A DNA stretch of 32,000 nt from Paracoccus suum (GTDB lineage Bacteria; Pseudomonadota; Alphaproteobacteria; Rhodobacterales; Rhodobacteraceae): the NCBI RefSeq assembly GCF_003324675.1, contig NZ_CP030918.1, positions 1,500,001 to 1,532,000 on the forward strand, in the 5' to 3' direction. Positions 6,447 through 31,766 of this stretch are shown in pieces. The notes beneath the pieces were generated by a model, which saw only the letters and a list, made by a program, of their open reading frames with translations, was not told where the DNA came from and did not search any database. Position 1 is the first letter of the stretch, and every line of letters starts with the position of its first letter. The translations under genes and the position numbers were made by a program.

Positions 6447-6551
6447 CGCATGACGCTAGGTGCGGCGCGCAGACTGTGCAAGGAACCCCCTGCGCGCACA
6501 TCGTGTTCGGTGCTGAAGCGCTGACGCCGCGCCATTTTTCAAGGGGACCCC

Positions 6552-7625: not shown

Positions 7626-7655
7626 CGGCGGCCGGGCGGGCAGGGGACGTCGCTG

Positions 7656-8786: not shown

Positions 8787-8822
8787 CGGCGCAGGATCAG
8801 GGCCGCTGGGCCGGGAAGGCGA

Positions 8823-10757: not shown

Positions 10758-11242
10758 TGCATTGGAGCGCCGATGTCTGGTCGGCCGTCGCCAGTTGGAT
10801 CATGGCCGTTGCATCGGTCGGCGCCTGCGTCGTTGGCCTGTTCGGCCTCTGGACCTGGAAAAAGCAGGACATGTGGAAGGCCGACAAGGACCTTGCACGG
10901 CGCATGCTCTTGACCCTGTCGCATTACGAGAATGCCGTGCGCGCCGCCGTCAACATGCCGGCGACCGCGGACCCCTCGACCGACCGCCGCGCCGTTGCGC
11001 AGGCGAGGGCCGAGGTCCTGCCCCTGTCGCAGGAGGCCGAGGCGGTCTGGGGCAAGGACTTTCCTGCCGACCGACTGGCACAGGCGCTGCGCCTTGAGGG
11101 CGAGATTTTCGCCACAAGCGCTGATTCCCCCGACCACGCGTTAGGCGCGAGTCCCACACATTCCGGCATCCTCGACCTTCTGCACCGCGAGTTGCAGCAC
11201 ATAGAGGCGGTGCTGCGCGGCAAGTTGGGGACGCGCAGATGA
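10754..11242 (+). CDS. N-terminally membrane-anchored hypothetical protein (162 aa)
   Basis: The start overlaps the AAA+ stop (ATGA at 10754-10757). There is one TM helix (VWSAVASWIMAVASVGACVVGLFGLW) followed by a helical soluble part. Confidence 0.65.
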   Translation: MMHWSADVWSAVASWIMAVASVGACVVGLFGLWTWKKQDMWKADKDLARRMLLTLSHYENAVRAAVNMPATADPSTDRRAVAQARAEVLPLSQEAEAVWGKDFPADRLAQALRLEGEIFATSADSPDHALGASPTHSGILDLLHRELQHIEAVLRGKLGTRR

Positions 11243-12906: not shown

Positions 12907-13596
12907 ATGCGATATGCAGGTTGGGTGCTGAAGGGGCTGTTTGCCCTGTTGGTGTTCCTGTTTCTCGACTACTCGCTACCCAGTCGCGAGACTGTGCGGA
13001 TCACCAATACCTACAACAAGCTGACCGACCTCGGTGCCAACAGCATCTTTTATGCGGGCGCCGATACCGGCACGGTCGAGAACCAGCAGGGCCTGCGCGA
13101 CATCCGGTATATCGACACGATTAAGGCCAATGGCCGGCCGCGCGTCTATCGAAACGAGGATACCGGCTGGATCTGGCCGCCATATTTCAAATACGACAGC
13201 TCGAACCTGCAAGCGCGCGCGACGGACCTGAAATCGACTGCCGAAGCGCCCAAATGGGTCAGCGTGACTGCATATGGTTGGCGCGTCGGCTGGCTGACCA
13301 TCTTTCCAAACGCCATTTCGCTCAAGCCCGTGGCCGGGCCGGACGTGCGCCCGCTGAACTGGGCGGCGCTGGTGATCCTCGGGGTTCTGGGGCTGTTGCT
13401 GGTGCTGTTGTGGCGCATTTGGGCGCAGTTCCGCGAGCGGACGATCGACCCGGCGGTGCGCCGCGCAGACGAGACATGGGACCGGCTCGACGCCCGGGCC
13501 GACGCCGCACGGGATCGCCTCTCGTCCGAGGCGGGCGAGGCGCGGGGCCGTATCCGCGGCTGGCTGGACACCTGGCGCGGCAAGCCGCGCCGCTGA
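12907..13596 (+). CDS. DUF1523-family membrane protein
   Basis: 229 aa with an N-terminal TM helix (VLKGLFALLVFLFLDY) and the conserved core YRNEDTGWIWPPYFKYDSSNLQA, which I recognise from DUF1523 proteins. A second TM helix (WAALVILGVLGLLLVLLW) and a charged tail follow. GAGGGGG lies 7 nt upstream. Confidence 0.7.
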   Translation: MRYAGWVLKGLFALLVFLFLDYSLPSRETVRITNTYNKLTDLGANSIFYAGADTGTVENQQGLRDIRYIDTIKANGRPRVYRNEDTGWIWPPYFKYDSSNLQARATDLKSTAEAPKWVSVTAYGWRVGWLTIFPNAISLKPVAGPDVRPLNWAALVILGVLGLLLVLLWRIWAQFRERTIDPAVRRADETWDRLDARADAARDRLSSEAGEARGRIRGWLDTWRGKPRR

Positions 13597-18506: not shown

Positions 18507-18523
18507 CTTAAGGTCGGCTTAAG
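18507..18523 (+). promoter_or_regulatory. Tandem CTTAAG-N5-CTTAAG box (copy 1), a predicted response-regulator site upstream of dsbD
   Basis: GGCTTAAGGTC GGCTTAAGGTG GGCTT: an 11-bp periodic direct repeat (hexamers at 18507-12 and 18518-23, with a degenerate third unit). TAGCC follows 10 nt downstream (18534-38) and the dsbD ATG is at 18547. Confidence 0.6.
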
Positions 18524-18546: not shown

Positions 18547-20451
18547 ATGATGACAAGATTTTTTTCCCTATCCTTCGCGACGCTGTCGCTGCTGATTGTG
18601 GTCCTTGCCGCAGGCTGGGCGGGCGCCCAGACGCACAAGCCACCACTGCAACCAGAGGACGCCTTTGCGCTGAGGGTCAGCCAGGACGCCGACGGCGCGC
18701 TGAACCTCAACTGGGATATCGCGGACGGCTATTACCTTTACCGCAGTGAGTTGAAGGCCGAGGCCGGCGACGGGCAGGAGCTGTCGCTGTCGCTGCCCGA
18801 GGGCGAGACCTATGCCGACCCCTATTTGGGCGAAGGGCAGATTTACCGCCAGAATGTCAGTGCAATGCTGGATCATCCGGTCGACGGAATGACCCTGCAT
18901 TGGCAGGGCTGCCAGCAGGACGGCATCTGCTACGCGCCGCAAAAGGTCAGTCTGGGTGCCGACGGCAGCGTCCTGCCGGTCGCGAATCGGACCCCCGCGC
19001 AGGACGATGGCGGCGTGTCTGCAGGGTCGGGTTGGACCCCGCAGACAGGCATGGTCGACCAAGCAGAGGCTGGCAAAGTTGATGTGGGGCAGGTAGATGC
19101 GGGGGCCGGTGGGGCGGAAACTGCGCGGCGGGGGACAGGCACCGGCGTGATCCTCGCGCAGGACCAGGGCCTCGTCCAAGGCCTCGCCGCGCGCGGCGGC
19201 GGTGCGCTGGTCATCCTTGGCTTCCTTGGCTTTGGCCTGCTGCTGGCTTTCACGCCCTGCGTCTTTCCGATGTTTCCCATCGTCGCCGGGATGCTGGCCG
19301 GGCAGGGCGAGGCCCTGACCGCGCGGCGTGGTCTGGTGCTGACCGGCGCTTACGTTCTGGCGATGGCGGCGGCCTTTGGCCTTTTGGGCATCGCCGCGGC
19401 CTGGTCCGGCGCGAACCTTCAGATGGTGCTGCAATCGCCGGCCGCCATCGCCGTGATCGCCGTGCTGTTCGTTCTTCTGGCGCTGTCGATGTTCGGATTT
19501 TACGAACTGCAGATGCCCGAGGCGCTGCAGCGCCGGCTCGGTCGGGTCGCGGGCAAGCGTGGCTCGCTGGGCGGGGCGGCGGTGCTTGGCTTTACCTCGG
19601 CGTTGATCATCGGGCCTTGCGTCACCGCGCCACTGGCGGGGGCGCTGCTTTATATCGCGCAGACCGGCGACGTGGCGCTCGGCGCGGCGGCGCTGTTCGC
19701 GCTGGGGCTGGGGCAGGGCGTGCCCCTGCTGGTCATCGGTCTCTTCGGGCCGCGGATACTGCCGCGCAGCGGCGCTTGGATGGAGGGCGCCAAGCAGGTG
19801 TTCGGCGTCATCTTCCTCGGCTTTGCCATCTGGCTGGCGAGCCGCGTGCTGCCGGGACCCGCGACACTGGCGCTGTGGGCGGCGTTGCTGGTCGGGACCG
19901 CGGTCTTCCTCGGTGCGCTCGACCGGCTCGACAGCGGCGCGACGCGCGGGCGGCGGCTGGCAGCAGTGCTGGGGGTGCTGCTGCTCTTTACGGGCGTGGT
20001 GCAGGGCCTTGGTGCCGCCCTCGGGGCCGTCGACCCGCTGCGGCCGCTGGCGCCCTTGGCGGGCCGCGCGGCGCCAGCAACGGCAGGGGCTGAAGCGCAG
20101 TTCGCGCACGTCACCACCGGCGCGGGCCTCGAACAGGCGCTGGCCTCGGGAAGCGGCAAGCCTGCGCTGGTCTATGTCACTGCCGACTGGTGCGTGACGT
20201 GCCGCGCCATCGAGCGCGGGCCGCTGGCGGATCCCGCAGTCACCGCGGCCCTCAGCGGCTTGGACGCGATCAAGGTCGATGTCAGCGATTTCAACGCCGA
20301 GGCGCAGATGCTGATGAAGGATCTGGCCGCGGCGGGCCCGCCGACCATGATCTTTCTGGACGCGGCCCGGGCCGAGGCCGCGGGCAGCCGGCTGATTGGC
20401 ATGGTCGACAGCGGCGCGATGCTGTCCTCGATCGGCAAAGTCGGGTCGTGA
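18547..20451 (+). CDS. dsbD: Thiol:disulfide interchange / membrane electron transporter, DsbD/ScsB family
   Basis: 634 aa with a signal peptide, an N-terminal periplasmic domain with HWQGCQQDGICYAP, a TM core with CVFPMFPI and GPCVTAPL, and a C-terminal thioredoxin fold with DWCVTCR. Confidence 0.9.
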   Translation: MMTRFFSLSFATLSLLIVVLAAGWAGAQTHKPPLQPEDAFALRVSQDADGALNLNWDIADGYYLYRSELKAEAGDGQELSLSLPEGETYADPYLGEGQIYRQNVSAMLDHPVDGMTLHWQGCQQDGICYAPQKVSLGADGSVLPVANRTPAQDDGGVSAGSGWTPQTGMVDQAEAGKVDVGQVDAGAGGAETARRGTGTGVILAQDQGLVQGLAARGGGALVILGFLGFGLLLAFTPCVFPMFPIVAGMLAGQGEALTARRGLVLTGAYVLAMAAAFGLLGIAAAWSGANLQMVLQSPAAIAVIAVLFVLLALSMFGFYELQMPEALQRRLGRVAGKRGSLGGAAVLGFTSALIIGPCVTAPLAGALLYIAQTGDVALGAAALFALGLGQGVPLLVIGLFGPRILPRSGAWMEGAKQVFGVIFLGFAIWLASRVLPGPATLALWAALLVGTAVFLGALDRLDSGATRGRRLAAVLGVLLLFTGVVQGLGAALGAVDPLRPLAPLAGRAAPATAGAEAQFAHVTTGAGLEQALASGSGKPALVYVTADWCVTCRAIERGPLADPAVTAALSGLDAIKVDVSDFNAEAQMLMKDLAAAGPPTMIFLDAARAEAAGSRLIGMVDSGAMLSSIGKVGS

Positions 20452-21266
20452 ATGCCGTCTCGATAGGACCGCTGGTGTTTGACGGCGCGCGGTTCGCGGC
20501 GATCTTCGCGCTGCTGCTGTTCTTTGCCGTGGCGGAAATCGTCGCCCGGGGCCAGCGGGGGCAGGTCCTGCGCGGCGATCCCGCGCGCTGGACCTGGCTG
20601 GCCGCCATCGCCTGGATCATGGGCGCTCGCATTGGCTTTGTCGCCATGAACTGGGCCGAGTTTTCCCCCCATCCTTGGGACAGCGTCAAGTTGTGGCAGG
20701 GCGGCTTTCTGCCGGCCGGTGGCTGGGCAGCCGGCCTCGCAGTGTTTCTGCTGGCGATGCTGCGCGATGTGCGCGGCGCGCTCGCGCCGCTGGCCCTGGG
20801 CAGCGCCGCGGCACTGGTCACGCATCTGGCGATCCCGGTCGCGTTTCCCATGACCAAACCTGATTTGCCTCCGATGCAACTGATGGCTCTGGACGGCGCC
20901 CCGGTCCAGTTGACCGGGCGCGAGCGGTCCGTGGTGCTGAACCTCTGGGCGAGTTGGTGCCCGCCATGCCGGCGCGAGATGCCGATGATGACCGACCTCG
21001 CCGCGCGAACGCCGGGGGTGGACTTCATCTTCGCCAATCAAGGCGAGGGCGCGGACCAGATTGACGCATTCCTGCGCGGCGAGGGGCTGCCGCCAGCCGG
21101 AATGGTCCGCGATCCGCAGAGCGGGCTGATGGCTGCGCTTGAGGCGATTGGCCTGCCCTCGACGCTGGTTTTCGACGCCGGTGGCCGGCTGATCGGAGCA
21201 CACACCGGCGAAATTTCACGAGCGGCCCTGGGCCGCATGATCGCTGACGCAGCACCGCGAAGATGA
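20448..21266 (+). CDS. Membrane-anchored TlpA/ScsD-like thioredoxin with an Lgt-like N-terminal TM region
   Basis: The GTG at 20448 overlaps the dsbD stop (GTGA). The N-terminal ~150 aa are hydrophobic and include KLWQGGFLPAGGW, reminiscent of the Lgt WxGG motif. The C-terminal thioredoxin domain carries LNLWASWCPPCRREMP. The track ORF start (20190) lies inside dsbD and is rejected. Confidence 0.75.
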   Translation: MNAVSIGPLVFDGARFAAIFALLLFFAVAEIVARGQRGQVLRGDPARWTWLAAIAWIMGARIGFVAMNWAEFSPHPWDSVKLWQGGFLPAGGWAAGLAVFLLAMLRDVRGALAPLALGSAAALVTHLAIPVAFPMTKPDLPPMQLMALDGAPVQLTGRERSVVLNLWASWCPPCRREMPMMTDLAARTPGVDFIFANQGEGADQIDAFLRGEGLPPAGMVRDPQSGLMAALEAIGLPSTLVFDAGGRLIGAHTGEISRAALGRMIADAAPRR

Positions 21267-21303: not shown

Positions 21304-21945
21304 ATGAGCATAACCCGACGCGACATTCTGGCGGGCACCGTCGGCCTCGGTTTGGCCGGGATCGCCGGCGGGGCCTTCCTGCTCAGCATGGACCGGGGCG
21401 CGAGCAAGGCCGCCGCCCTCAGTGTCCAAGATGTCCTGCACGATCCCGACAATCCCGTCCTCGGAAACCCCAAGGGTGCGCTGACCATCGTCGAGTATTT
21501 CGACTACCAGTGCCCGTTCTGCAAACGCGGCCATTCGATGCTGACGCGCGTGGTCGACGAGGACGGCGATATCAGGCTGGTGATGAAGGACTGGCCGATC
21601 TTTGGCGCGCCCTCGGTTCGGGCCAGCCAACTGGTCCTCGGGGCATCCTCGACCGGGGAATATGAAAAGGCGCATTCGGCCCTCATGGCGACCGAGGCGA
21701 AACTGTCCGAGGGGCAGATCCGGCAGGTGCTACGCGATGGCGGTATCGACCCCGACGCCTCGCTGGCCGCCTATCGCGCGGATCGCGGAAAATGGGACGG
21801 CTTGCTGTCGCGCAATTCCGCCCAGGCGGGCGAGTTGGGTCTGCAAGGCACGCCGGCCTTCATCGTCGGCGCCAAGATCTATCCCGGTGCGCTGGACGAG
21901 ACCGGACTGCGGGCGATCATCGCCGATGCCCGCGCCGCCGCCTGA
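21304..21945 (+). CDS. Periplasmic DsbA-family thiol oxidoreductase (ScsC-like), Tat-type signal
   Basis: 213 aa with MSITRRDILAGTVGLGLAG (twin-arginine motif) and the active site FDYQCPFCKRGH. Confidence 0.85.
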   Translation: MSITRRDILAGTVGLGLAGIAGGAFLLSMDRGASKAAALSVQDVLHDPDNPVLGNPKGALTIVEYFDYQCPFCKRGHSMLTRVVDEDGDIRLVMKDWPIFGAPSVRASQLVLGASSTGEYEKAHSALMATEAKLSEGQIRQVLRDGGIDPDASLAAYRADRGKWDGLLSRNSAQAGELGLQGTPAFIVGAKIYPGALDETGLRAIIADARAAA

Positions 21946-21948
21946 GGT

Positions 21949-21965
21949 CTTAAGGCTGCCTTAAG
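21949..21965 (+). promoter_or_regulatory. Tandem CTTAAG-N5-CTTAAG box (copy 2), upstream of the second DsbA-like gene
   Basis: TCTTAAGGCTGCCTTAAGCC, with hexamers at 21949-54 and 21960-65. TAGCC follows exactly 10 nt downstream (21976-80), the same offset as copy 1. Confidence 0.55.
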
Positions 21966-22106
21966 CCGGCGCCCGTAGCCGTTTCGGGAAACGAGGCGAC
22001 CGACCAGCCGGGCCGCGCCTGCGCCCGCAGGTTGGCATCAGCCGAAAACACGTCAGGGCGGGGCAAGCCCCGCAAGCCCCACGCCATGAACCATGAAGGA
22101 AAAAAC

Positions 22107-22733
22107 ATGCATCGTCGAAATCTTGTTCTCGCGGGCGCCAGCCTGCTTGTGCTGCCGACCGTCGCCCTGCCCGCCGCTGCCGCTGCGGCCAGCAATCCGA
22201 TGCCGGCCGCCCTGCGCAAGGCGCTGGAGCGCGACCCGACCGCCCCGGTACTGGGCAATCCCAATGGCGATGTCACCCTGACCGAGTTCTTTGACTACAA
22301 CTGCCCGTTCTGCCGCAAGATGGTCGGGCCGATGCACAGCCTGATCGTCGAGGACAAGAACCTGCGCGTCGTGTTGCGCGAATGGCCGGTGTTCGGCGAG
22401 GATTCGGAATTCGCGGCGCGCGCCTCGCTGGCCTCGCTGCAGCAGGGCAAATACTGGCAATATCACACCGCGCTGTTCCGCACGAAGGGCCGCGTGACCG
22501 AGAAGGCCACGATGCAGGTGGCGCGCGACATCGGCCTCGATATCGCGCGCCTGGAGCGCGACATGGACAGCGAGCAGGTCGAGCGGCACATCACCTCAAG
22601 CCACATGCTCGGAGAGCACATGGGCCTTGTCGGCACGCCCAGCTTCATCGCAGGCGACGAGGGCGCCTTCGGGCAATACAGCCTCGACGAGTTGCGCGGC
22701 ATGGTGAAACGCGCCCGCGCGACCTTGGCCTGA
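22107..22733 (+). CDS. Second periplasmic DsbA-family thiol oxidoreductase
   Basis: The ATG at 22107 is preceded by GAAGGA (22095-22100). The product starts MHRRNLVLAGASLLVLPTVALPAAAAAA (signal) and has the active site FDYNCPFCRKM. The track start at 22032 is a TTG with no SD. Confidence 0.8.
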   Translation: MHRRNLVLAGASLLVLPTVALPAAAAAASNPMPAALRKALERDPTAPVLGNPNGDVTLTEFFDYNCPFCRKMVGPMHSLIVEDKNLRVVLREWPVFGEDSEFAARASLASLQQGKYWQYHTALFRTKGRVTEKATMQVARDIGLDIARLERDMDSEQVERHITSSHMLGEHMGLVGTPSFIAGDEGAFGQYSLDELRGMVKRARATLA

Positions 22734-22790: not shown

Positions 22791-24149
22791 CTAACCGGCG
22801 GGCAGGATCACATCGGCCTGCTCGCCGCCGCCTTGACGCGGCGACAGGCGCAACTCGCCGCCCATCGCCTGCACGGCGGCCGCCACTATCGAGAGGCCAA
22901 GCCCGCTGCCCCCGCCCGACGCGCTCGCCGCGCCGCGATAGAAGCGCTCGGTGACATGCGGGCGATCCGCCTCGGCGATGCCGGTCCCCCGGTCCAGCAC
23001 GCTGAAGCGCACCGCGTCGCCATCCTGGACAAGCCGCGCCTGCACCACCGCACCACGGGGCGAGGCGAGGATCGCGTTCTCGAGCAGATTGCGAAGCGCG
23101 GGCGCCAGCAGCGCCGCCTGCGTGGTGCGCCATTTCGCTTGACCGGTTTTCAGCCGCAACTCGACGCCGCGCGATTTCGCCAGCCCGGCCAGTTGGCCAG
23201 CCACGTCGGCAAGTACGCTCGCGCCGTCTTGCGCGGGGGCCTGTGCACTGTCGATGGTGTTCTCGGCCGCCGTCATGTCCAGCAGCTGGCGCACCATGCG
23301 GTCGGTGCGATCGACAGCCAGCGTGATCTGCGTCAGCGCCCGCTCGCGCGTCGCGGCATCGGGCGCAAGAGCGGCGATCTGGGCCTGCGTCTTCAGCCCG
23401 GCAAGCGGGGTCTTCAACTCGTGGGCGGCAAAGGCGGTGAAGCTGCGCTCGCGCTCGCGTAGCCCCTCGACGCGGCGGAAAAGGCCGTTCAGCGCCTCGG
23501 TCATCGGTCGCAGTTCGGCCGGACCGCGGGTCTGCGTCAGCGGGCTGAGGTCGGTCGCCGGACGGCGCGACAGCGCATGGGCGAGGCGGTCCAGCGGCTC
23601 CAGCCCGTGGCGCACGGCCAGCCAGATCATCCCCGCCAGCAGCGGCAGGATCAGGATCGCTGGCGCCAGCAGGCCGATGGCAACGCCCCGCACCAGCCTC
23701 TCGCGCACGCTGAGGGCGTCGCCGACCATGACGCGGACCCCCAGATCCTCATCGACATGGGTATAGACCCGCCACACCTCACCATCGATGGTGTTTTCGC
23801 TGAAGCCGGCCTGCGCCGACAATTGCCCCGAGGGCGCGCCGGCGGATTCGCTCTTCAGCTGGCCGTCAAAGCCCCAGACCTGACAGATCAGCTGGCGCGC
23901 GACGTCGTGCCGCCCAGTCTGTGACAGGGCCGGGACCTCGTCCACCAGCCGCGCGGCGTCGGGGCCGGCGATGCCGCCGTTGCGCTGGATCAGCGAAGCG
24001 ACCATCTGCGCCGATTCCTGCAAGCGCCGGTCCAGCACATGGCCGACCTCGCTGCGGGTGGAATGCTGGATCCAGGCGACGGCCGACAGCCAGATTGCCC
24101 CGGTGGCAAGCAGCAGGATGACAAACAGGCGCCCGCGGATCGACGTCAT
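22791..24149 (-). CDS. Sensor histidine kinase, QseC/PmrB-like
   Basis: 452 aa with two TM helices flanking a ~130-aa periplasmic domain, a HAMP region, the H-box FTAFAAHELKTPLAGL, the N-box LLENAILAS, and the G-boxes DRGTGI and GSGLGLSIV. The start overlaps the regulator stop (ATGA at 24146-24149). Confidence 0.9.
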   Translation of the reverse strand: MTSIRGRLFVILLLATGAIWLSAVAWIQHSTRSEVGHVLDRRLQESAQMVASLIQRNGGIAGPDAARLVDEVPALSQTGRHDVARQLICQVWGFDGQLKSESAGAPSGQLSAQAGFSENTIDGEVWRVYTHVDEDLGVRVMVGDALSVRERLVRGVAIGLLAPAILILPLLAGMIWLAVRHGLEPLDRLAHALSRRPATDLSPLTQTRGPAELRPMTEALNGLFRRVEGLRERERSFTAFAAHELKTPLAGLKTQAQIAALAPDAATRERALTQITLAVDRTDRMVRQLLDMTAAENTIDSAQAPAQDGASVLADVAGQLAGLAKSRGVELRLKTGQAKWRTTQAALLAPALRNLLENAILASPRGAVVQARLVQDGDAVRFSVLDRGTGIAEADRPHVTERFYRGAASASGGGSGLGLSIVAAAVQAMGGELRLSPRQGGGEQADVILPAG

Positions 24150-24823
24150 GGCGAGCCACCGTCGGCCGGGTTCAGCAGGCGGTAGCCCGCGCCGCGAACG
24201 GTCTGGATGAAGTCGCGGCCCAGCTTCGCGCGCAATTTGTGAACGTGAACCTCGACCGTGTTGCTCTCGACATCCTCCTGCCAGCCGTAAAGCCGCTCTT
24301 CCAGCTGCGCCTTGGACAGGATGCGGCCGGGATGTTCGGCCAGGGCGTGCAGGACGCTGAATTCCCGGCGCGAAAAGCTCAACTCACGCCCGCCGATGCG
24401 ACCGTTCTGCGTGGCGGGATCGAGGCTGAGGCCGTTCCATTCGATCACTGCCGTCGCCCGCCCCTCCTGACGGCGCAACATGGCGCGGATGCGGGCGGCA
24501 AGCTCGGTCAAATCGAACGGCTTGCCGAGGTAGTCATCCGCCCCCGCGTCGAGGCCCGAGACACGGTCGCGCACCTCGTCGCGGGCGGTCAACAGCAGGA
24601 CGGGAATCCGCGATCCCGCCGCGCGGAGTTCGTTCAGCAGATCGAGGCCCGAGCCGTCCGGGAGCATGACGTCCAGCACGACCCCGGCAAAGCCGCCCCC
24701 GAGGAGTGCCGCGCGCGCATCAGCCAGCGTTCCGGCGGTATCGGCGGTAAAGCCCGACAGGCGCAGCCCGACGCTCAATCCGTCCAGCAGCAGCGGGTCG
24801 TCCTCGATAATCAGCAAGCGCAT
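24146..24823 (-). CDS. OmpR-family response regulator, QseB/PmrA(BasR)-like
   Basis: 225 aa: MRLLIIEDDPLL...VLDVMLPDGSG...LTARD...KPF, with the winged-helix end NTVEVHVHKLRAKLGRDFIQTVRGAGYRL. This closely resembles BasR/QseB (NTLEVHIHNLRDKVG..IRTVRGFGYML). AGGAAA lies 7-8 nt upstream. Confidence 0.9.
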   Translation of the reverse strand: MRLLIIEDDPLLLDGLSVGLRLSGFTADTAGTLADARAALLGGGFAGVVLDVMLPDGSGLDLLNELRAAGSRIPVLLLTARDEVRDRVSGLDAGADDYLGKPFDLTELAARIRAMLRRQEGRATAVIEWNGLSLDPATQNGRIGGRELSFSRREFSVLHALAEHPGRILSKAQLEERLYGWQEDVESNTVEVHVHKLRAKLGRDFIQTVRGAGYRLLNPADGGSP

Positions 24824-24868: not shown

Positions 24869-24885
24869 CTTAAGCGGGGCTTAAG
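24869..24885. promoter_or_regulatory. Tandem CTTAAG-N5-CTTAAG box (copy 3), in the divergent regulator/oxidase intergenic region
   Basis: GCTTAAGCGGGGCTTAAGC, with hexamers at 24869-74 and 24880-85. It lies 46 nt upstream of the response-regulator ATG (minus strand). On the plus strand it is followed by TAGCT at the same +10 offset (24896-900) and by a copy of the dsbD 5' end. Confidence 0.55.
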
Positions 24886-25028: not shown

Positions 25029-25045
25029 CTTAAGGCTCGCTTAAG
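25029..25045 (+). promoter_or_regulatory. Tandem CTTAAG-N5-CTTAAG box (copy 4), upstream of the oxidase operon
   Basis: CCTTAAGGCTCGCTTAAGG, with hexamers at 25029-34 and 25040-45. GATAAG follows 10 nt downstream (25056-61) as a -10-like element. It lies about 100 nt upstream of the ccoN-like start. Confidence 0.55.
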
Positions 25046-25147: not shown

Positions 25148-26698
25148 ATGTTGATTACCATGGGCCTGCTTCTGGCCCTCAGCTTCGTTGTTTCGCTGCT
25201 TGCCCTGACCTTCCTGATCTGGGCGATCGCGACGCGGCAGTTCGCGCTGGACCGCGCCCAGGCCAAGACGGTCTTCGGCAAGGAGGCAGCCGAGCCCGAT
25301 ACGGACGGCACGCATCTGTTCGACACCACCGGGATCGACCGCGTCTCGGCCCGGCCAGTGCGGCTACTGATCCTGGGCGCGATCTTCTGGCTGCTGCTGG
25401 CATCAGCCTTCGGAGTGATCGCCTCGCTCAAGCTGCACTGGCCGGACTGGCTGAACCAGGCCGCGCCCCTGACCTTTGGCCGGATGCGCGCGCTGCACCT
25501 GAACCTCGTGACCTACGGCTGGCTGTCGCAGATCGGCATCGCCTGCATGTACTGGATCCTGCCGCGCATCTTCCGCACCCAACTGCGCTCGCCACAACTG
25601 GCGGTGATCGGCTTCTGGCTGTGGAACATCGGCGTCACGCTGGGCGCCGTGACCTTCGCCTGGGGTTGGACCGATGGCGAGGAATGGCTGGAGTTCGCCT
25701 GGCAGTTTGACATGCTGCTGGTCCTCGCCGGGGTATTTTTCGTCGTGCCGCTGGTACGCACGGCGCGGGCGCGCGAGGTCGACCATATCTACGTCACCGG
25801 CTGGTATTTCCTGGCCGCAATGGTCTGGTTCCCCTGCCTTTTCTTCATCGCCAACTTCCCGGGCATTCACTACGGGGTCGAGGAGGCGACCGTGAACTGG
25901 TGGTTTGCCCACAACGTCCTCGGCCTCTGGCTGACGCCGCTGGGGGTCGGGACGGCCTATTATTTCATCCCCAAGATCATCGGCAAACCGATCTATTCCT
26001 ATTCACTGTCGTTGATCGGCTTCTGGGGGCTCGCGCTCTTTTACAGTCAGGTTGGCATCCACCACCTGATCGGCGGTCCGTTGCCGACCTGGGTGGTCAC
26101 GCTCTCGATCGTGCACTCGATGATGATGTTCATCCCGGTCATCGCGGTGGCGATCAACCAGCATGTGACGGTGGCGCGCAACACCTGGGCACTGCGGGAA
26201 TCGCTGCCGCTGCGCTTCATCGCCTTCGGAGCGGTGATGTACACGCTGGCTTCGTTCCAGGGCTCGATCGAGGCGCTGCGCTCGGTCAACACGATCACGC
26301 ACTTCACCCATTACACCGTCGGCCATGCCCATCTGGGGGCCTATGCCTTTGTCTCGATCGTCATGTTCGGCGCGGCCTACCACATCATGCCGCGCATGGT
26401 GGGGCGCGAGTTCGCCTATCCCGGCCTGATCCGCCTGCACTTCTGGTTGGTGGTGCTCGGCTTTGCGATCTACTTCTTCGCGCTGACCATCGGCGGCGTG
26501 CTGCAGGGCCTCGCGATGCTTGATGCGACCCGCAGTTTTGCGGAAAGCGTGATGGTAACGAAGCCGTATCTGGAAGCGCGGTCGGTCGGCGGCACGATGA
26601 TGGCGCTGGGCCATGTCGTCTTTGCCGCCAACATCATCGGCATCCTGCGCGCCCCGCGCCGTGCCCTCCAACCCCAAAGCAGCGTGCCGGCAGAATGA
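25148..26698 (+). CDS. ccoN: cbb3-type (C-family) heme-copper oxidase subunit I with an N-terminal CcoS/FixS-like fusion
   Basis: The ATG at 25148 has GAAGGA 9 nt upstream. The first ~50 aa, MLITMGLLLALSFVVSLLALTFLIWAIATRQFALDRAQ, resemble CcoS (..FxWAxxSGQFDD..). The rest carries CcoN hallmarks: RALHLN, NWWFAHNVLGLWLTP..YYFIPK, FYSQVGIHH (Tyr six residues before the HH CuB ligands) and HYTVGHAHLG. Confidence 0.85.
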   Translation: MLITMGLLLALSFVVSLLALTFLIWAIATRQFALDRAQAKTVFGKEAAEPDTDGTHLFDTTGIDRVSARPVRLLILGAIFWLLLASAFGVIASLKLHWPDWLNQAAPLTFGRMRALHLNLVTYGWLSQIGIACMYWILPRIFRTQLRSPQLAVIGFWLWNIGVTLGAVTFAWGWTDGEEWLEFAWQFDMLLVLAGVFFVVPLVRTARAREVDHIYVTGWYFLAAMVWFPCLFFIANFPGIHYGVEEATVNWWFAHNVLGLWLTPLGVGTAYYFIPKIIGKPIYSYSLSLIGFWGLALFYSQVGIHHLIGGPLPTWVVTLSIVHSMMMFIPVIAVAINQHVTVARNTWALRESLPLRFIAFGAVMYTLASFQGSIEALRSVNTITHFTHYTVGHAHLGAYAFVSIVMFGAAYHIMPRMVGREFAYPGLIRLHFWLVVLGFAIYFFALTIGGVLQGLAMLDATRSFAESVMVTKPYLEARSVGGTMMALGHVVFAANIIGILRAPRRALQPQSSVPAE

Positions 26699-27318
26699 AC
26701 CGCTATCTTCCCCTCGTGCTGATCTCGCTCGGGATCCTCGCATTTGCGACCCTGTTTCTGGTGATCGCGCCGGGCATCCAGATTGCCCAGCGCGCAGTCT
26801 CTGAAGGGCTGCGCCCCTATACCGAACAGGAGGCGCGCGGCCGCGCGCAATATGTCAGTCTTGGCTGCGTCTACTGCCACAGCCAGCAGCCCCGCTCGCC
26901 CGACCAGGCCCCGGACGGAGAACGCGGCTGGGGCCGTCCTGCCGTCGCGGGAGATTATGTCTTCGACCGTCCGCACCAGCTGGGGACGATGCGCACCGGC
27001 CCGGACCTGCTGAACGTCGGCGCGCGCCTGCCCTCGGCAAGCTGGCAGCTGACGCATCTCTATCAGCCCCGTGCAATCTTTCCGTGGTCGATCATGCCGG
27101 CCTATCCGTATCTGTTCGAGAAAAAGGCAAAGGCAGCCGAAGGCGACACCGTTGTTGTTCTGCCCAACGGCGTCGGCCCGGCGGATGGCGGCGTCATTGT
27201 CGCCCGTCCCGAGGCGCTGGATCTGGCTGCTTACCTGCTGTCGCTCGACCGGACCTATCCGGTGCCCGCAAACTCGCTCCGGGACGACGGTTTCGCCCGC
27301 CGGGGAGCAAGCTCATGA
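26695..27318 (+). CDS. ccoO: cbb3-type oxidase monoheme subunit II (CcoO/FixO-like)
   Basis: The start overlaps the ccoN stop (ATGA). There is an N-terminal TM anchor, then GRAQYVSLGCVYCHSQQPR (CxxCH), GTMRTGPDLLNVG and WSIMPAYPYLF, matching the CcoO pattern. Confidence 0.85.
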   Translation: MNRYLPLVLISLGILAFATLFLVIAPGIQIAQRAVSEGLRPYTEQEARGRAQYVSLGCVYCHSQQPRSPDQAPDGERGWGRPAVAGDYVFDRPHQLGTMRTGPDLLNVGARLPSASWQLTHLYQPRAIFPWSIMPAYPYLFEKKAKAAEGDTVVVLPNGVGPADGGVIVARPEALDLAAYLLSLDRTYPVPANSLRDDGFARRGASS

Positions 27319-28562
27319 ACCGGCCCGACAAGCAGCCCGTCAAATCCCGGCTTGCCGACGAGGGCTACGAGCCGTGGGAGAACAACAGGCGCATCCCGCT
27401 GCCGGTGATCTGGGTCGCCGTGGCGCTGGCCGTCTGGGGTACGGCAACGCTGCTTCGCGATAGCGGCAGCTACGCGGTCGCCCAGAACGAGCGCCAATCC
27501 GGCGAGACTGTGGCCGCCGAGGCGCCGGAGGGCGGCGAGGCGCTGTTCCTCGCCCGCTGCTCGACCTGTCACCAGCCCAACGGCGCCGGCGTCCGGCTGG
27601 CTGTTCCCCCCCTGCACGGGTCTGACTTTGCAAAGGCAGGCCCGGAGGTCGTCGCCCAGATCATGCTGCGCGGCATCGACGGCCCCATTCGGGTCTCGGG
27701 CTTTGCGTATGACGGGCGCATGCCAAGCTTTGCCGCGGCGCTGAACGATGGTGATATCGCGCAGATCGCATCTTTCGTTGCCAACCGCTTTGGCGGGACC
27801 GGGGCCGCGCTCGAGGCCGGGCAGGTGGCCACCCTGCGTGCCGCGCAGGCGAACAAGGGCAGCTGGCAAGGCGGCGCCGAACTGGCCGCGCTGGTCCCCG
27901 ATCTACCCACGCAGCCACCGATGCCGGCAGAGGCAAAGCCTGCGACCGATCCTGCCATCTCGGCCCTGGTCTTTGCCGGCAAGAGCGATGCCTGGTCCTG
28001 CGCCAGCTGTCACGGCGATCTGGGGCAGGGGACCGAGAACACGCCGCGCCTCGCCGGTCTCGCGCAGGGCTACATCGCCCGCCAGCTGCGCGATTTCCGC
28101 CAAGGCGAGCGCCATAACGAAAGCATGAATTCGGTCGCAAAAGCCCTGAACGATCATGAGATCCACGGGCTGGCCGCCTATTACGCCCGCCAGCGGGTCG
28201 CCTCTGCCGCGCAGCCCGCGCTTGGCGGCGATCTGGCGCGGGGCGAGCAGATCGCGCTGCAGGGCGATTGGAGCATCGGCGTTCCGGCCTGTTTCAGCTG
28301 CCATGGCCCGTCGGGCTTTGGCGTGGCACCCGATTTCCCGGCGCTGGCGGCGCAGCAGCCAGCCTACATCGCCAGCCAGCTCGCTGCCTGGGCGGGCGGT
28401 CATCGCAACAACTCGCCGCTTGGTCTGATGGACCGGATTTCCGAGGCGTTGCCCGAGGCTGACCGTCGCGCCGTGGCCGACTACCTCGCCTCGCTGCCGG
28501 CAGTTCCGGCGCCCGAACAGCGGGCCGAGGCAAAGATTGATGGGGGTAAGGATGAGCTCTGA
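27315..28562 (+). CDS. Membrane-anchored triheme cytochrome c: a CcoP-like monoheme domain plus a c4/TsdB-like diheme domain
   Basis: The ATG at 27315 overlaps the ccoO stop (ATGA); the track start at 27084 lies inside ccoO. There is a TM helix (IPLPVIWVAVALAVWGTATLL) and three CxxCH motifs: CSTCH, CASCH and CFSCH. The last two domains have the repeated ...PRLAGLAQGYIARQLRDFRQGER... / ...PALAAQQPAYIASQLAAWAGGHR... pattern of c4-type diheme cytochromes. Confidence 0.8.
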   Translation: MNRPDKQPVKSRLADEGYEPWENNRRIPLPVIWVAVALAVWGTATLLRDSGSYAVAQNERQSGETVAAEAPEGGEALFLARCSTCHQPNGAGVRLAVPPLHGSDFAKAGPEVVAQIMLRGIDGPIRVSGFAYDGRMPSFAAALNDGDIAQIASFVANRFGGTGAALEAGQVATLRAAQANKGSWQGGAELAALVPDLPTQPPMPAEAKPATDPAISALVFAGKSDAWSCASCHGDLGQGTENTPRLAGLAQGYIARQLRDFRQGERHNESMNSVAKALNDHEIHGLAAYYARQRVASAAQPALGGDLARGEQIALQGDWSIGVPACFSCHGPSGFGVAPDFPALAAQQPAYIASQLAAWAGGHRNNSPLGLMDRISEALPEADRRAVADYLASLPAVPAPEQRAEAKIDGGKDEL

Positions 28563-29598
28563 AAAACACGAGGACCCGGGCCAGGGCCGCAGCGTGAAGC
28601 GGCTGATCTATTCTGTCGGCGGGGGACTTGTTCTGGTGGCCATCGGCGCCCTGGCGCTCGAGTCGGATCTGCTGCCGACATGGATCAGCGGCCGCACGAC
28701 GGAGGCGCCGGCCGCCCAAAGCGCCTTCTTTCAGCCCCCCTCCGAGGATGAACTGCCTGAAGGCCCCTTTGGCGAGGCCGTCAAGCGTGGTCGCGATATC
28801 TTCATGAACACGTCCACCAATGCCGGGGAATACGTCGGCAACGGGCTGTCCTGCTCGAACTGCCACCTCGACGGCGGCCGCCAGCCGATGGCAGCGCCAA
28901 TGTGGGCGGCCTGGACGCGCTATCCGATGTATCGAAAGAAGAACAACCAGATCAATACGATGGAAGATCGGGTGATGGGTTGCTTCAGCTATTCGATGAA
29001 CGCCCAGCATTCGGTCTCGGGTGGCCCGCCGCCGCATGGCAGCGACATCTACCGCGATCTGGACAGCTATTTCTACTGGCTCGCCACCGGCGCGCCGACC
29101 AACGTCCCGATGGAGGGCAACGGCTTTGGCAAGGTCGCCAAGACCGAGGCCGGCTATTCCTCCGACCGCGGGGCCCAGGTCTTCTCGGCCAACTGCGCAG
29201 TCTGCCACGGCGAGGACGGGCAGGGCCAGACCGATGCCAACGGCCGGATCGTGTTCCCACCGCTGTGGGGACCGAACAGCTATAACTGGGGCGCGGGCAT
29301 GGCCAAGATCGACACCGCCGCCGCTTTCGTGCAGCACAACATGCCGCTCTCCCAGCCGGGCAAGTTGTCCGACCAGGAGGCCTGGGACGTCGCCGCATAT
29401 ATCGACAGTCACGAGCGGCCCAAGGATCCCCGCCAGGGCAAGGGCACGGTCGAGGAGAACCGCAAGAAGTCCCATGACGGCGACGCGACCTATTACGGCC
29501 AGGTGCTTAATGGCACCCTGATCGGCGTCGGCACGCCCGACCCGGCGCGGCCGGTGGGCGCGCCCGATGCCCCGGCCGGGGTCACGCCGCCGGAATGA
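28552..29598 (+). CDS. tsdA: TsdA-family diheme cytochrome c (thiosulfate dehydrogenase / tetrathionate reductase-like), membrane anchored
   Basis: Heme motifs are CSNCH and CAVCH. A conserved Cys lies in RVMGCFSYSMN, the position of the His/Cys-ligating Cys in TsdA. FPPLWGPNSYNWGAGMAKIDTAAAFVQHNMPLSQPGKLSDQEAWDVAAYI closely parallels Allochromatium TsdA (FPPLWGPRSFNTGAGM...FIKHKMPLG..LSDEEAWDVAGFV) as I recall it. There is an N-terminal TM segment (LIYSVGGGLVLVAIGALAL). Alternative starts exist at 28537 (TTG) and 28540 (ATG). Confidence 0.7.
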   Translation: MSSEKHEDPGQGRSVKRLIYSVGGGLVLVAIGALALESDLLPTWISGRTTEAPAAQSAFFQPPSEDELPEGPFGEAVKRGRDIFMNTSTNAGEYVGNGLSCSNCHLDGGRQPMAAPMWAAWTRYPMYRKKNNQINTMEDRVMGCFSYSMNAQHSVSGGPPPHGSDIYRDLDSYFYWLATGAPTNVPMEGNGFGKVAKTEAGYSSDRGAQVFSANCAVCHGEDGQGQTDANGRIVFPPLWGPNSYNWGAGMAKIDTAAAFVQHNMPLSQPGKLSDQEAWDVAAYIDSHERPKDPRQGKGTVEENRKKSHDGDATYYGQVLNGTLIGVGTPDPARPVGAPDAPAGVTPPE

Positions 29599-31766
29599 CC
29601 CGGCAGCTGTTCGGCATCGACGGGCTGGCCTGCGCCGGCTGCGCGCGCGGGCTGGAAAAGCGCCTGCAGTCGCTGCCCGGCGTGCGCGCCGCCGGGGTGC
29701 ATTACCTGACCGCCTCAGCGCTGGTCGACTGGGATGAAAACCAGGCCAGCCGCGCCGACCTTTCGGCTGCCGTGGCCAAAGCCGGCTATGTGATGGCGCC
29801 GCGGCACCGACCGGACGAGGTTTCCGCCGCGATGGGACGCGATCTGCACCGGCTGGGCATCCGCCTTGCCGTCGCCGTCTTTGCTGGCATGTGGTCGATG
29901 GTGCCGGCGCTGGTGATCTATTTCACGGCGCTGGGTCCCGATGTCGCCTTCTGGCTAGCCGTTGCCTCAGGCCTTTTCGCGCTGCCAGTCGTATTCTGGG
30001 CCGGTTCCGGCATCCTGTGGATGGCCTGGCGCTCGGTCCTATTGCGCGCGCCGGGGATGGACCTGCTGATCGGCCTCGGCGCGCTGTCAGCCTGTGCGGT
30101 CTCGGCCTGGTCGCTGGCGCAAGGCCGGTCCGAGGTCTGGTTCGATACCGCGACAATGCTGATCACGCTGCTGTTGTTCGGGCGGCTGGTCGATACCGCG
30201 ACCCGGCGCAGCGCGGTCGATGCCCTGCGCGCGATGGAGGACGCCTCGCCGGAAACCGCCTTGGTCGAAACCGATGCCGGCTGGCAGCCGCAACCCTGCG
30301 CCGATGTGGCCATCGGCAGGCGCATCGCAGTCGATGCCGGCGCGCCGGTCAGCATGGACGGGGTGGTCCTTTCCGGGGACAGCCAGATCAACCGCGCTGT
30401 CCTGACGGGCGAGACGGCGCTGGTTGCTGTCGGATCGGGGGACCGGGTCGAGGCAGGTGCCATCAACCTCGGCCGGCGCCTGATCCTGAGGGTCGAGCGC
30501 GCTTTCGGCGACCGCGAGATCGACCGCATGGGCGGGGCCATCGCGCTGGAAGTGGCGCGGCGCGGCACCCGCGCCTCAGCCTCCGACCATTGGGCGGCGC
30601 GTCTGTCCGTGGCGATCCCGGCGCTGGCCGCGATCACCGCGCTGGTATCCTTTGGCCTGGGACTCGGGGCCGAGGCCGCGCTGCTGCGCGGGCTGACCCT
30701 GCTGGTCGCGGCCTGTCCCTGCGCCTTGGCGATTGCCCTGCCACTGGCGCAGATGCGCGCCGCCCAGACCGCCGCTGCCCAGGGCATGCGCCTGCGCGAT
30801 CCCGACGCCTTCGGCGCGCTCGGCCATCTCGGCAGCATCGTCTTTGACAAGACCGGCACGTTGACCACCGGCCAGTTGCAGGTGGTCGAGCTACGCCCGG
30901 CCGAAGGGATCGATGCCGCCCAGCTGTTGCAACTCGCTGCACTGGCCGAGACCGGGATCAGCCACCCCATCGCCCGGGCGATCATCGCCGCGCATGGCTG
31001 CGAGGCTGGGGTGGGCGGGCGCCGCCTGCCGCGCGGCGCCGAGGCCGAGGACGACGCAGGGCGCGTGGTCGAAATCGGCGCTGCCGGTCAGGCCGATGCG
31101 CAGGGGCGCAGCTGGCTGGTCGTCCGCCGCGACGGGCGCGAGGTCGGCCGCATCGCGCTGGCAGACACGCTGCGGCCAGAGGCGGCCTCCGTTCTTGCAA
31201 CGCTGCGGGAACAGGGGATTGTCCTGCACATGGCAACTGGCGACAGCGCGCCCGCGGCGCTTGCCCTGGCAGACCGGCTGGGGCTTTCGGCCGGCTCTGT
31301 CTCGCATGACTGCACGCCCAGCCAAAAGGCGGCGCTGCTGGGAAGCCTGCCGCGACCCGTGGCCTTCGTGGGCGACGGGGTCAATGACGGACCCGCGCTC
31401 GCCGCCGCTGATTGCGGGATCTCGGTCGCGGATGCCCATTCGGCCGCGGTGCAGACGGCGGCGGTCGTGATAACCGCCGGCGGGCTGACCCATATCGCCG
31501 GGGCCATCACGCTGTCCCGCGGCACCCGGCGGATCGCGCATCAGAACCTGGCCCTGGCATTGATTTATAACGCGTTCATGTTGCCGGCCGCCGCTTTCGG
31601 GCTGATCGGTCCGGCGGTCGCGGCGGCGGCGATGCTGGCGAGTTCCGTCTCGGTCATCCTGAATAGCCAGAGGCTCGGCCGGCGCGCCGCCGGCGAGGAT
31701 CGGCCGGCCGCCCCCCGGGCCGGCTGGATTTCGGCCGGCGTGGCCGATAAATTCGAAACGCTTTGA
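29595..31766 (+). CDS. ccoI: P1B-type Cu-translocating ATPase (CcoI/FixI-like)
   Basis: The start overlaps the tsdA-like stop (ATGA). Motifs are the HMA motif GLACAGC, the TM CPC motif CPCALAIALP, DKTGTLT, SHP and GDGVNDGPAL. Assignment as CcoI rather than CopA rests on operon context only. Confidence 0.8.
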   Translation: MTRQLFGIDGLACAGCARGLEKRLQSLPGVRAAGVHYLTASALVDWDENQASRADLSAAVAKAGYVMAPRHRPDEVSAAMGRDLHRLGIRLAVAVFAGMWSMVPALVIYFTALGPDVAFWLAVASGLFALPVVFWAGSGILWMAWRSVLLRAPGMDLLIGLGALSACAVSAWSLAQGRSEVWFDTATMLITLLLFGRLVDTATRRSAVDALRAMEDASPETALVETDAGWQPQPCADVAIGRRIAVDAGAPVSMDGVVLSGDSQINRAVLTGETALVAVGSGDRVEAGAINLGRRLILRVERAFGDREIDRMGGAIALEVARRGTRASASDHWAARLSVAIPALAAITALVSFGLGLGAEAALLRGLTLLVAACPCALAIALPLAQMRAAQTAAAQGMRLRDPDAFGALGHLGSIVFDKTGTLTTGQLQVVELRPAEGIDAAQLLQLAALAETGISHPIARAIIAAHGCEAGVGGRRLPRGAEAEDDAGRVVEIGAAGQADAQGRSWLVVRRDGREVGRIALADTLRPEAASVLATLREQGIVLHMATGDSAPAALALADRLGLSAGSVSHDCTPSQKAALLGSLPRPVAFVGDGVNDGPALAAADCGISVADAHSAAVQTAAVVITAGGLTHIAGAITLSRGTRRIAHQNLALALIYNAFMLPAAAFGLIGPAVAAAAMLASSVSVILNSQRLGRRAAGEDRPAAPRAGWISAGVADKFETL

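Follow-up and report, generated by a model that had tools for sequence, protein, structure and literature searches.

Oxidation of thiosulfate to tetrathionate is widespread among marine, soda-lake and soil proteobacteria, and the destination of the electrons released by TsdA and its partner TsdB, as well as whether the reaction conserves energy, are questions that have been loosely discussed. The roles of the heme-ligand residues in TsdA are experimentally established (PMC5146829). We describe here a five-gene operon in a 32,000-nucleotide stretch of the Paracoccus suum genome (the window; assembly GCF_003324675.1, contig NZ_CP030918.1, positions 1,500,001 to 1,532,000), in which genes for a TsdB-containing cytochrome and a TsdA homolog lie among those of a divergent cbb3-type oxidase. 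On balance, we favor the reading that this operon encodes a self-contained, dedicated thiosulfate-to-O2 respiratory branch. TsdA, TsdB and c4-to-cbb3 electron transfer are already known; what is new is a cbb3-type oxidase with the TsdA partner cytochrome as its third subunit. A first-pass annotation of the window had proposed a dedicated thiosulfate-to-oxygen path and was aware of no description of one. Searches of the literature indeed yielded no description of the operon, of a CcoP-less, FixS-fused oxidase clade or of an anchored TsdB, and an earlier mention is possible; the feeding of a cbb3 oxidase by a c4-type TsdB, however, has already been suggested in print (PMC9237845, with reference to Kurth 2016).

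The five genes are packed as one unit on the + strand. A ccoN-like gene (25148-26698; Pfam COX1, E 1.3e-81) encodes the catalytic subunit of a divergent cbb3-type (C-family) heme-copper oxidase, and is followed by a ccoO-like gene for the monoheme subunit (26695-27318; FixO, E 3.8e-31; CVYCH at amino acids (aa) 58-62). The third gene (27315-28562) codes for a 415 aa triheme cytochrome composed of a transmembrane (TM) helix, a monoheme domain and a c4-type diheme part. Next comes the tsdA homolog (28552-29598; 348 aa), for which the open reading frame (ORF) extends from 28537 and the likely start is the ATG at 28552, with 28537 or 28540 as alternatives. The last gene (29595-31766) encodes a P1B-type Cu-transporting ATPase in the CcoI/FixI position, with HMA, E1-E2_ATPase and Hydrolase domains (Pfam). 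All four junctions overlap: ATGA start/stop overlaps join ccoN to ccoO, ccoO to the triheme gene and tsdA to the ATPase gene, and the triheme and tsdA genes share 11 nt (28552 to 28562). Because this is a coupling signature, the five genes are translationally coupled. The triheme and tsdA genes thus lie, as the first-pass annotation had it, inside the oxidase gene set, between ccoN-ccoO and the Cu-ATPase gene. The name ccoI that it gave to the last gene is a positional label: a P1B Cu-ATPase does occupy that place, but the family models identify it as generic Cu-type (TIGR01525, 392 bits against a cutoff of 346; HMA CAGC at aa 13-16, CPC at aa 374-376 and DKTGT at aa 418-422). A role as CcoI in CuB insertion may be proposed from its position and its conserved linkage to oxidase genes. 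The window ends 234 nt past the ATPase gene.

CcoN aligns over its full length with P. stutzeri CcoN (3MK7 chain A; E 6e-73, ~35% identity) and keeps the ligands H117, H255, H305/H306 and H393/H395 and the cross-link Tyr, Y299, in the HLN, AHN, Y-x5-HH and GHAH motifs of 3MK7 that characterize a cbb3-type CcoN. CcoO has one N-terminal TM helix and retains the GPDL / S-x-MP motif region, as expected of a monoheme subunit. Both proteins score far below the canonical equivalog cutoffs (TIGR00780 ccoN, 282.5 bits versus 583; TIGR00781 ccoO, 107.5 bits versus 200.65), and thus represent a separate, divergent clade. There is no ccoP or ccoQ ORF at the locus, where the genes overlap without a gap and where the FixP_N domain of CcoP was not found; ccoG and ccoH are absent from the window. 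CcoN carries an extra N-terminal TM helix (aa 1-31, nt 25148-25240) that resembles CcoS/FixS. PF03597 (FixS) is the top family for this extension in 27 of 27 members of the CcoN clade (best E 4e-6), and one homolog (P0234) has a precomputed PF03597 match; the window CcoN N-terminus itself reaches 19.2 bits, below the 23.1 cutoff (E 1e-3). In canonical systems, CcoS is a free-standing single-TM protein of ~50 aa, and its gene comes after ccoI. The fused helix and the downstream Cu-ATPase therefore point to an operon with its own CcoS-like and CcoI-like functions, and the locus defines a CcoP-less, FixS-fused clade of C-family oxidases.

The fourth gene product is a two-domain class-I cytochrome with two CXXCH motifs, as in TsdA (CSNCH at aa 101-105, CAVCH at aa 215-219; Pfam SoxA-TsdA_cyt-c and Cytochrom_C). 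Its match to the TsdA half of M. purpuratum TsdBA (MpTsdBA, 5LO9) has an E of 3.1e-89, and that to A. vinosum TsdA (AvTsdA) an E of ~3e-50. The window protein was aligned with 11 homologs from related loci, AvTsdA and MpTsdBA. Cys144, within MGCFSYS (aa 142-148), aligns with the heme-1 Cys ligand (RIGDCFERS in AvTsdA, IQGCFRYS in MpTsdBA) and is the predicted ligand here; together with both CXXCH motifs and the heme-2 Met, it is invariant among the 12 cluster TsdA proteins. At heme 2, N263-M264 (QHNMPL, aa 261-266) corresponds to K208-M209 in AvTsdA and to ANMPL in MpTsdBA, and every cluster TsdA aligned has Asn-Met, whereas AvTsdA has Lys-Met. Comparison with characterized TsdA, a step the first-pass annotation had itself proposed, thus bears out its identification of the protein, the Cys ligand and the Asn-Met pair. 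It had named a missing Cys or a grouping with SoxA as grounds for abandoning the identity; the Cys is present, the protein is TsdA-like over its full length, and SoxA scores are far weaker (structures at E 1e-3 to 8e-3; NCBIfam SoxA 55 bits versus a cutoff of 110). Only its description of Asn-Met as Campylobacter-type fails, because MpTsdBA shares this pair and it is no marker of Campylobacter.

The window TsdA is predicted to convert thiosulfate to tetrathionate. The TsdA of the P. thiocyanatus type strain, in which the locus is a full cluster, is 80% identical to it. P. thiocyanatus SST has a single tsdA, DIE28_04655, which comes after a gene described as "cbb3 subunit III-like / tsdB"; deletion of this tsdA abolished tetrathionate formation and lowered thiosulfate-dependent O2 uptake by 40-50% (10.1101/683490). 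One alternative is that TsdA runs in reverse, as a respiratory tetrathionate reductase of the Campylobacter kind with the triheme protein as donor, and that the linkage to ccoNO reflects only shared microaerobic regulation, since cbb3 oxidases are typically microaerobic. TsdA enzymes are bifunctional, and the heme-2 Asn-Met is shared with CjTsdA (PMC5146829), which is compatible with such a role. Translational coupling to an O2 reductase would, however, be senseless for an anaerobic reductase, and no FNR/Anr box of the type found in canonical cbb3 operons occurs upstream of ccoN beyond chance. Furthermore, the closest characterized relative, MpTsdBA, likewise has Asn-Met; in work by Kurth from 2016 it is said to act as a thiosulfate oxidizer. 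With the loss of thiosulfate oxidation as the phenotype of the SST deletion (10.1101/683490), a reductase role is very improbable.

The triheme cytochrome is the element that joins the two systems. The first-pass annotation had read its gene as a membrane anchor, one heme domain with CSTCH and a c4-like pair with CASCH and CFSCH, and all of these are found. The anchor (aa 1-47; 27315-27455, + strand) combines a (Y/F)EP(W/Y)E motif on the cytoplasmic side with a PLP-x-x-W TM segment, a single hydrophobic helix at aa 27-47 that begins at aa 29 in the AlphaFold2 model (mean predicted local distance difference test score 82.4). A monoheme class-I cytochrome c domain follows (27522-27794, +; CSTCH at aa 82-86, Met136; Pfam Cytochrom_C / Cytochrome_CBB3), and then the TsdB-like c4-type diheme domain (27975-28511, +; CASCH at aa 229-233 with Met271, CFSCH at aa 326-330 with Met372). 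The three CXXCH motifs and the candidate Met ligands M136, M271 and M372 are invariant in 59 aligned full-length homologs and at least 95% conserved across all 120 triheme homologs. The anchor residues E19, P20, E22, P28, W41 and G42 likewise reach at least 95% conservation in the 120.

The TsdB-like identity holds for the C-terminal two-thirds of the protein, by sequence and by predicted fold. By PDB sequence, the diheme part matches the TsdB half of 5LO9 best (E 5.8e-27) and cytochromes c4 next; a Foldseek search with the AlphaFold2 model also ranks 5LO9 first (E 7e-13, root-mean-square deviation (rmsd) 1.9 A), c4 structures reach a target-normalized template-modeling score of ~0.8, and the c4 subunit in the bc1-cbb3 supercomplex of P. 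aeruginosa (8SMR, chain K) is among the top matches. The diheme part thus has the cytochrome c4 fold with two His/Met hemes, and its gene lies directly upstream of tsdA, both as in TsdB. Canonical TsdB is a soluble periplasmic diheme protein of ~200 aa; because this protein of 415 aa has a TM anchor that looks uncleaved and a third heme domain, it is a TsdB-containing fusion and not a canonical TsdB.

The monoheme domain had been called CcoP-like, and this is not supported. Its best match in PDB sequence and fold is the C-terminal cytochrome of the Ralstonia three-domain copper nitrite reductase (CuNiR; E 6e-20, rmsd 1.6 A), with Thermus c552 also close in both, whereas NCBIfam ccoP scores 52 bits against a cutoff of 180 and FixP_N is absent. 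A CcoP-like fold for this domain was rejected on the Foldseek search, which returned NirK-fused cytochrome domains and c552; CcoP is absent among the 50 fold matches listed for the triheme model. Homology of the anchor to the FixP_N segment of CcoP was also considered and rejected: Pfam searches up to E 10 were empty, and a profile of 19 anchors against the PDB gave noise. When aligned by hhalign with six CcoP N-termini from canonical ccoNOQP loci, the anchor places PLP-W in register at E 0.057 and a probability of ~1%. The likeness to the CcoP N-terminus is a resemblance only.

Comparison of related genomes provides evidence that these genes belong together. Full-length triheme homologs form at least 120 clusters (49-75% identity), and CcoN homologs are equally numerous (59-89% identity), with representatives in the alpha-, beta- and gammaproteobacteria. 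This arrangement of genes recurs across the three classes, in Paracoccus, Szabonella, Brevundimonas, Stenotrophomonas, Brucella, Azospirillum, Rhodanobacter, Halomonas, Spiribacter, Alcaligenes, Bordetella-like and Telluria contigs, and the complete five-gene order is found in P. aminovorans, P. thiocyanatus, Szabonella, Brevundimonas, Stenotrophomonas and Brucella anthropi. The P. versutus record, which is without annotation in this region, contains a triheme gene with 75% identity and the same regulatory boxes. A Cu-ATPase gene comes after tsdA in most of the related loci. Every triheme-derived locus that has ccoNO shows the order ccoNO-tsdB-tsdA. A second sample, taken from the CcoN side to counter bias (Alcaligenes, Spiribacter, Azospirillum thiophilum, Halomonas korlensis, a Bordetella hinzii-like contig, Rhodanobacter and Telluria), has COX1-FixO-cytochrome-TsdA at all seven loci, and a Cu-ATPase gene downstream at six of the seven, immediately after tsdA at five. 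Sulfur-oxidation genes are often neighbors in other genomes, including soxYZ, flavocytochrome c sulfide dehydrogenase, soxA/soxB, rhodanese and Sulf_transp.

The third subunit occurs in three oxidase-linked architectures. In the window, other Alphaproteobacteria and Xanthomonadales it consists of anchor, monoheme domain and TsdB; in Halomonas and Spiribacter, the anchor and monoheme domain are followed by a separate TsdB; in the Burkholderiales variants (Alcaligenes, Bordetella-like, Telluria), the anchor carries TsdB only, with no monoheme domain. A genus-wide study from 2024 reported Spiribacter to be without a TsdB homolog (PMC11615355), whereas Spiribacter roseus has a c4-type TsdB gene and an anchored monoheme cytochrome between ccoO and tsdA (10215-11617 of locus L068). 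The anchor itself, F/Y-E/D-P-Y/W-E ... P-x-P ... W, is constant across all three architectures. Two Caulobacter metagenome-assembled genomes provide the counterpart: they contain a triheme-TsdA pair (L008 7737-10013 and L009 7755-10028) with no ccoNO within 8 kb, and in both a lipobox signal (LLAAC) replaces the FEPYE TM anchor. The anchor motif thus covaries with the oxidase, which is the best in silico argument for the anchor as an oxidase-docking element. Since the Burkholderiales variant has the c4 module alone, the monoheme relay is dispensable.

These same data bear on a more conservative explanation, in which the operon encodes an alternative cbb3 isoenzyme whose triheme protein is a CcoP substitute fed by the cytochrome c pool (bc1, c550/c552), with a soluble, co-regulated TsdA feeding that pool. 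The likeness of the monoheme domain to general electron carriers such as Thermus c552 fits this explanation, and the characterized TsdA and TsdB forms are soluble (PMC5146829; 5LO9). The N-terminus of the window TsdA can be read either way: a hydrophobicity scan finds a 19 aa hydrophobic stretch (aa 18-36), an ALA motif follows it and a cleaved Sec signal is possible, but comparison of homologs shows no conserved AXA site, which is missing from the P. thiocyanatus, Szabonella and Azospirillum proteins. In the Alcaligenes, Bordetella-like, Spiribacter and Halomonas TsdA, long charged linkers come after the hydrophobic N-terminus, and it is plausible, as judged from these sequences, that TsdA is membrane anchored. 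Moreover, tsdB-tsdA follow the oxidase genes in every CcoN-clade locus examined, including all seven on the CcoN side, which is unexpected for a general-purpose isoenzyme, and the anchored subunit of Burkholderiales is TsdB alone, lacking any general-carrier domain. An isoenzyme fed by the common pool therefore appears unlikely.

For the dedicated thiosulfate-to-O2 branch, the first-pass annotation had routed electrons through a CcoP-like domain; the CcoP likeness is not supported, and the idea of such a path is strengthened by the conserved linkage between the oxidase and tsdB-tsdA genes and by an anchor present only where the oxidase is. In the proposed mechanism, the His/Cys heme 1 of TsdA would convert two thiosulfate to tetrathionate and two electrons, which would pass via its His/Met heme 2 to both hemes of the TsdB-like domain and on to the monoheme domain, where present, on the same anchored polypeptide. 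From there they would travel through the CcoO heme c and the CcoN heme b to the b3-CuB site and O2. The anchored cytochrome would take the place that CcoP has in canonical cbb3 oxidases, and in variants of the Burkholderiales type the c4 module alone could lie opposite CcoO, an arrangement seen for c4 in 8SMR. Cofactor maturation would be provided by the CcoS-like extension of CcoN and by the co-transcribed Cu-ATPase, and a PmrAB/QseBC-like two-component system, described below, probably activates the operon, the dsb genes and its own genes via CTTAAG-N5-CTTAAG boxes. Docking, direct electron transfer, bypass of bc1 and proton pumping may be features of this branch. That its proteins form a stable supercomplex is offered tentatively. 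The fullest version, in which a new cbb3 subfamily uses an anchored TsdB to replace CcoP and dock TsdA, forming a stable, bc1-independent, proton-pumping thiosulfate:O2 oxidoreductase with a dedicated PmrAB-like sensor of thiosulfate or tetrathionate, is possible but doubtful.

Several observations weigh against the dedicated branch. The anchor has no detectable homology to the FixP_N anchor of CcoP by Pfam, profile or hhalign searches, and contact between the anchored cytochrome and CcoN-CcoO is something we infer. TsdA enzymes are reversible, and their direction in vivo depends on their partners. The window TsdA could be exported by means of a cleaved signal peptide and be soluble in the periplasm, and its hydrophobic N-terminus is kept in Caulobacter, which is without the oxidase. 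Metal and envelope-stress islands have the same ingredients, namely a Cu-ATPase, DsbD/DsbA genes and a PmrAB-like regulator. As to the SST strain, DIE28_04655 is presumably the ortholog of the cluster tsdA; after its deletion, half of the O2 uptake driven by thiosulfate persisted, via Sox, and the study covered no oxidase mutant and passed over the adjacent ccoNO without comment (10.1101/683490).

The regulatory signals at the locus define a second line of comparison. A PmrA-box-like sequence, CTTAAGGCTCGCTTAAG, lies at 25029-25045 (no strand assigned), 103 nt upstream of ccoN, and a second CTTAAG-N5-CTTAAG box at 24869-24885 (likewise unstranded) lies 46 nt upstream of a divergent response-regulator gene. 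Two further copies precede dsbD (18507-18523) and a second dsbA-like gene (21949-21965), giving four perfect copies in the window versus 0.01 expected. Five other alphaproteobacterial loci have this box 70-113 nt in front of ccoN (Szabonella, P. aminovorans, P. thiocyanatus, Brucella and Azospirillum; loci L001, L010, L011, L064 and L069, the last with 1 mismatch), and P. versutus (L071) has a copy identical to that of P. aminovorans. The Salmonella PmrA box is CTTAAG-N5-xTTAAT (PMC3973317). The divergent genes encode an OmpR-family response regulator (24146-24823, - strand; best NCBIfam matches PmrA 2e-66 and QseB 3e-61) and a QseC/PmrB-like sensor kinase (22791-24149, -; best match QseC 1.7e-64). 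This two-component system (22791-24823) is divergent from the cco-tsd operon, and all its NCBIfam matches are below the equivalog cutoffs. The same type adjoins the cluster in Alcaligenes, Azospirillum, Halomonas korlensis and Bordetella-like contigs and flanks tsdBA in H. titanicae, a species in which thiosulfate induces tsdA 4.3-fold and tsdB 21.5-fold (PMC9237845). The distribution of the boxes suggests a small regulon of the adjacent two-component system, and its kinase might respond to thiosulfate or tetrathionate.

Upstream, on the + strand, the window contains dsbD (18547-20451; Pfam/NCBIfam), an LGT/TlpA-like redoxin ORF (20190-21266) and two dsbA-like genes (21304-21945 and 22032-22733). 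Genes for DsbD, redoxin and DsbA are likewise found with the cluster in Paracoccus, Szabonella, Brucella, Stenotrophomonas and Azospirillum. The composition of this neighborhood allows a different explanation of the locus, namely that it is primarily an envelope, copper or thiol-stress island, with a Cu-exporting ATPase and a PmrAB/CopRS-like regulator, in which the oxidase and TsdA-like cytochromes serve detoxification, for example by removing reactive sulfur species or scavenging O2, and not energy conservation. A regulator of the PmrA/QseB type, with boxes that precede both the dsb genes and the cco operon, would suit such an island, as would the secondary similarity of the sensor kinase to heavy-metal sensor kinases (TIGR01386, 7e-48, below cutoff), the generic Cu-type character of the P1B ATPase, and the position of the Brucella cluster beside cydAB and genes for an ArsR regulator, a redoxin and a recombinase. 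DsbD, TlpA, DsbA and a Cu-ATPase, however, also serve the assembly of an enzyme with five c-type hemes and CuB, and CcoI, CcoS and TlpA have established roles in oxidase assembly. The CcoN active site is intact, and the SST tsdA, the presumed ortholog, supports bulk thiosulfate-to-tetrathionate conversion during chemolithotrophic growth (10.1101/683490). A primarily protective island seems improbable.

Other features of these loci touch the operon less directly. The redoxin ORF at 20190-21266 combines a weakly matching N-terminal membrane part like prolipoprotein diacylglyceryl transferase (LGT) with a TlpA/ResA-like thioredoxin domain; as the ORF overlaps the end of dsbD, its true start is uncertain, and an LGT plus Redoxin protein adjoins DsbD beside the cluster in Brucella and Stenotrophomonas as well. 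A paralogous gene pair lies beside the cluster in Brucella anthropi (L064 5448-7696), Stenotrophomonas (L073 3522-5799) and Szabonella (L001 14604-15548) and is absent from the window. It encodes a 446-460 aa c-type cytochrome and a SoxA/TsdA-like cytochrome of ~300 aa with an ordinary signal peptide, the latter ~31% identical to the cluster TsdA. After the cluster in Brucella anthropi (L064 14444-19791) come genes for a SoxB-like 5'-nucleotidase, an ArsR-type regulator, a redoxin and cydAB, and at a further locus (L065) a serine recombinase gene additionally follows, which hints that this whole region was acquired as a sulfur or redox island. The possibility that small mobile plasmids carry the cluster was considered and rejected, the only carriers found being replicons of >1 Mb (P. 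versutus, P. aminovorans, Indioceanicola).

A large set of loci (L012-L063) was rejected as cluster relatives, since they match the monoheme domain only and contain either NirK with a C-terminal cytochrome or large heme-binding proteins of Bacteroidota/Verrucomicrobiota. Within this set, the Lysobacterales and Steroidobacteraceae loci (L013-L044, ~6400-8400) encode a NirK C-terminal cytochrome ~40% identical to the monoheme domain, with nirK ~2 kb upstream of a canonical ccoNOQP; this is a recurrent nirK-cco neighborhood unrelated to the tsd operon. Elsewhere in the window are a Hint_2-domain protein (3224-4324) beside an HlyC-like RTX acyltransferase (4509-5060), an AAA ATPase (8823-10757), and DUF6638 (11239-12615) and DUF1523 (12907-13596) proteins. 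Long ORFs with no Pfam match (6456-8087; 8097-10553 on the - strand) are possibly spurious in this 67% GC sequence.

The operon could explain how tetrathionate-forming bacteria pass thiosulfate electrons to O2. If the fullest version, the stable and proton-pumping oxidoreductase, is real, it would supply the energy-conserving route so far missing from the many proteobacteria, heterotrophic and chemolithotrophic, in which thiosulfate is oxidized only to tetrathionate, and the clade would be a natural example of a substrate dehydrogenase partner in place of a standard oxidase subunit. The operon provides a genetically testable hypothesis, with a bypass of bc1, a span of ~0.6 V from tetrathionate/thiosulfate to O2 and possible proton pumping, together with a candidate regulator and its DNA box. 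It may also be used as a marker of aerobic tetrathionate formation in metagenome surveys that score tsdA and cbb3 separately.

Among systems of similar logic, the rus operon of Acidithiobacillus ferrooxidans (cyc2-cyc1-coxBACD-rus) reportedly co-encodes the path from an inorganic donor through cytochromes to a private oxidase, and the DoxDA thiosulfate:quinone oxidoreductase of Acidianus is said to make tetrathionate from thiosulfate in association with a terminal oxidase. Both consist of unrelated proteins (an aa3-type oxidase, rusticyanin and outer-membrane Cyc2 in the former, a quinone-dependent enzyme in the latter), and neither involves TsdA/TsdB or a cbb3-type enzyme. The DoxDA paper is cited in PMC6704655.

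The nearest relatives of the tsd genes are M. purpuratum TsdBA (5LO9) and the TsdB+TsdA pairs of Thiomonas intermedia, Pseudomonas stutzeri and Halomonas. As in 5LO9, which gives the best sequence and fold matches for both proteins, TsdA is a diheme protein with His/Cys at heme 1, Asn-Met at heme 2 and a C-terminal extension beyond the AvTsdA core; as in the pairs, the c4 diheme gene is immediately upstream. Unlike in either, TsdB here has a TM anchor with the FEP(Y/W)E motif and an extra monoheme domain. Unlike in the 5LO9 fusion, TsdA is made as a protein of its own and has a hydrophobic N-terminus. The characterized systems consist of soluble periplasmic proteins and have no dedicated oxidase, whereas both genes described here lie inside an oxidase operon.

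That operon shares with canonical CcoNOQP/ccoGHIS systems (P. stutzeri 3MK7/5DJQ; R. capsulatus 6XKW) the CcoN ligands and Tyr, a monoheme CcoO, and a CcoI-like Cu-ATPase and CcoS-like element tied to the operon. It differs in having no CcoP or CcoQ, a CcoS-like helix fused to CcoN, a TsdB-containing third subunit, and a PmrA-type box instead of an FNR box. The c4-fold diheme recalls the c4 donors of cbb3 oxidases (P. aeruginosa 8SMR/8SNH), 8SMR chain K being the third-ranked fold match, and Rhodobacter cytochrome cy is likewise a membrane-tethered class-I cytochrome that donates to a cbb3 oxidase. Cytochromes c4 and cy link bc1 to the oxidase, whereas the c4 module of this locus is the cognate partner of a dehydrogenase and is encoded in the oxidase operon itself.

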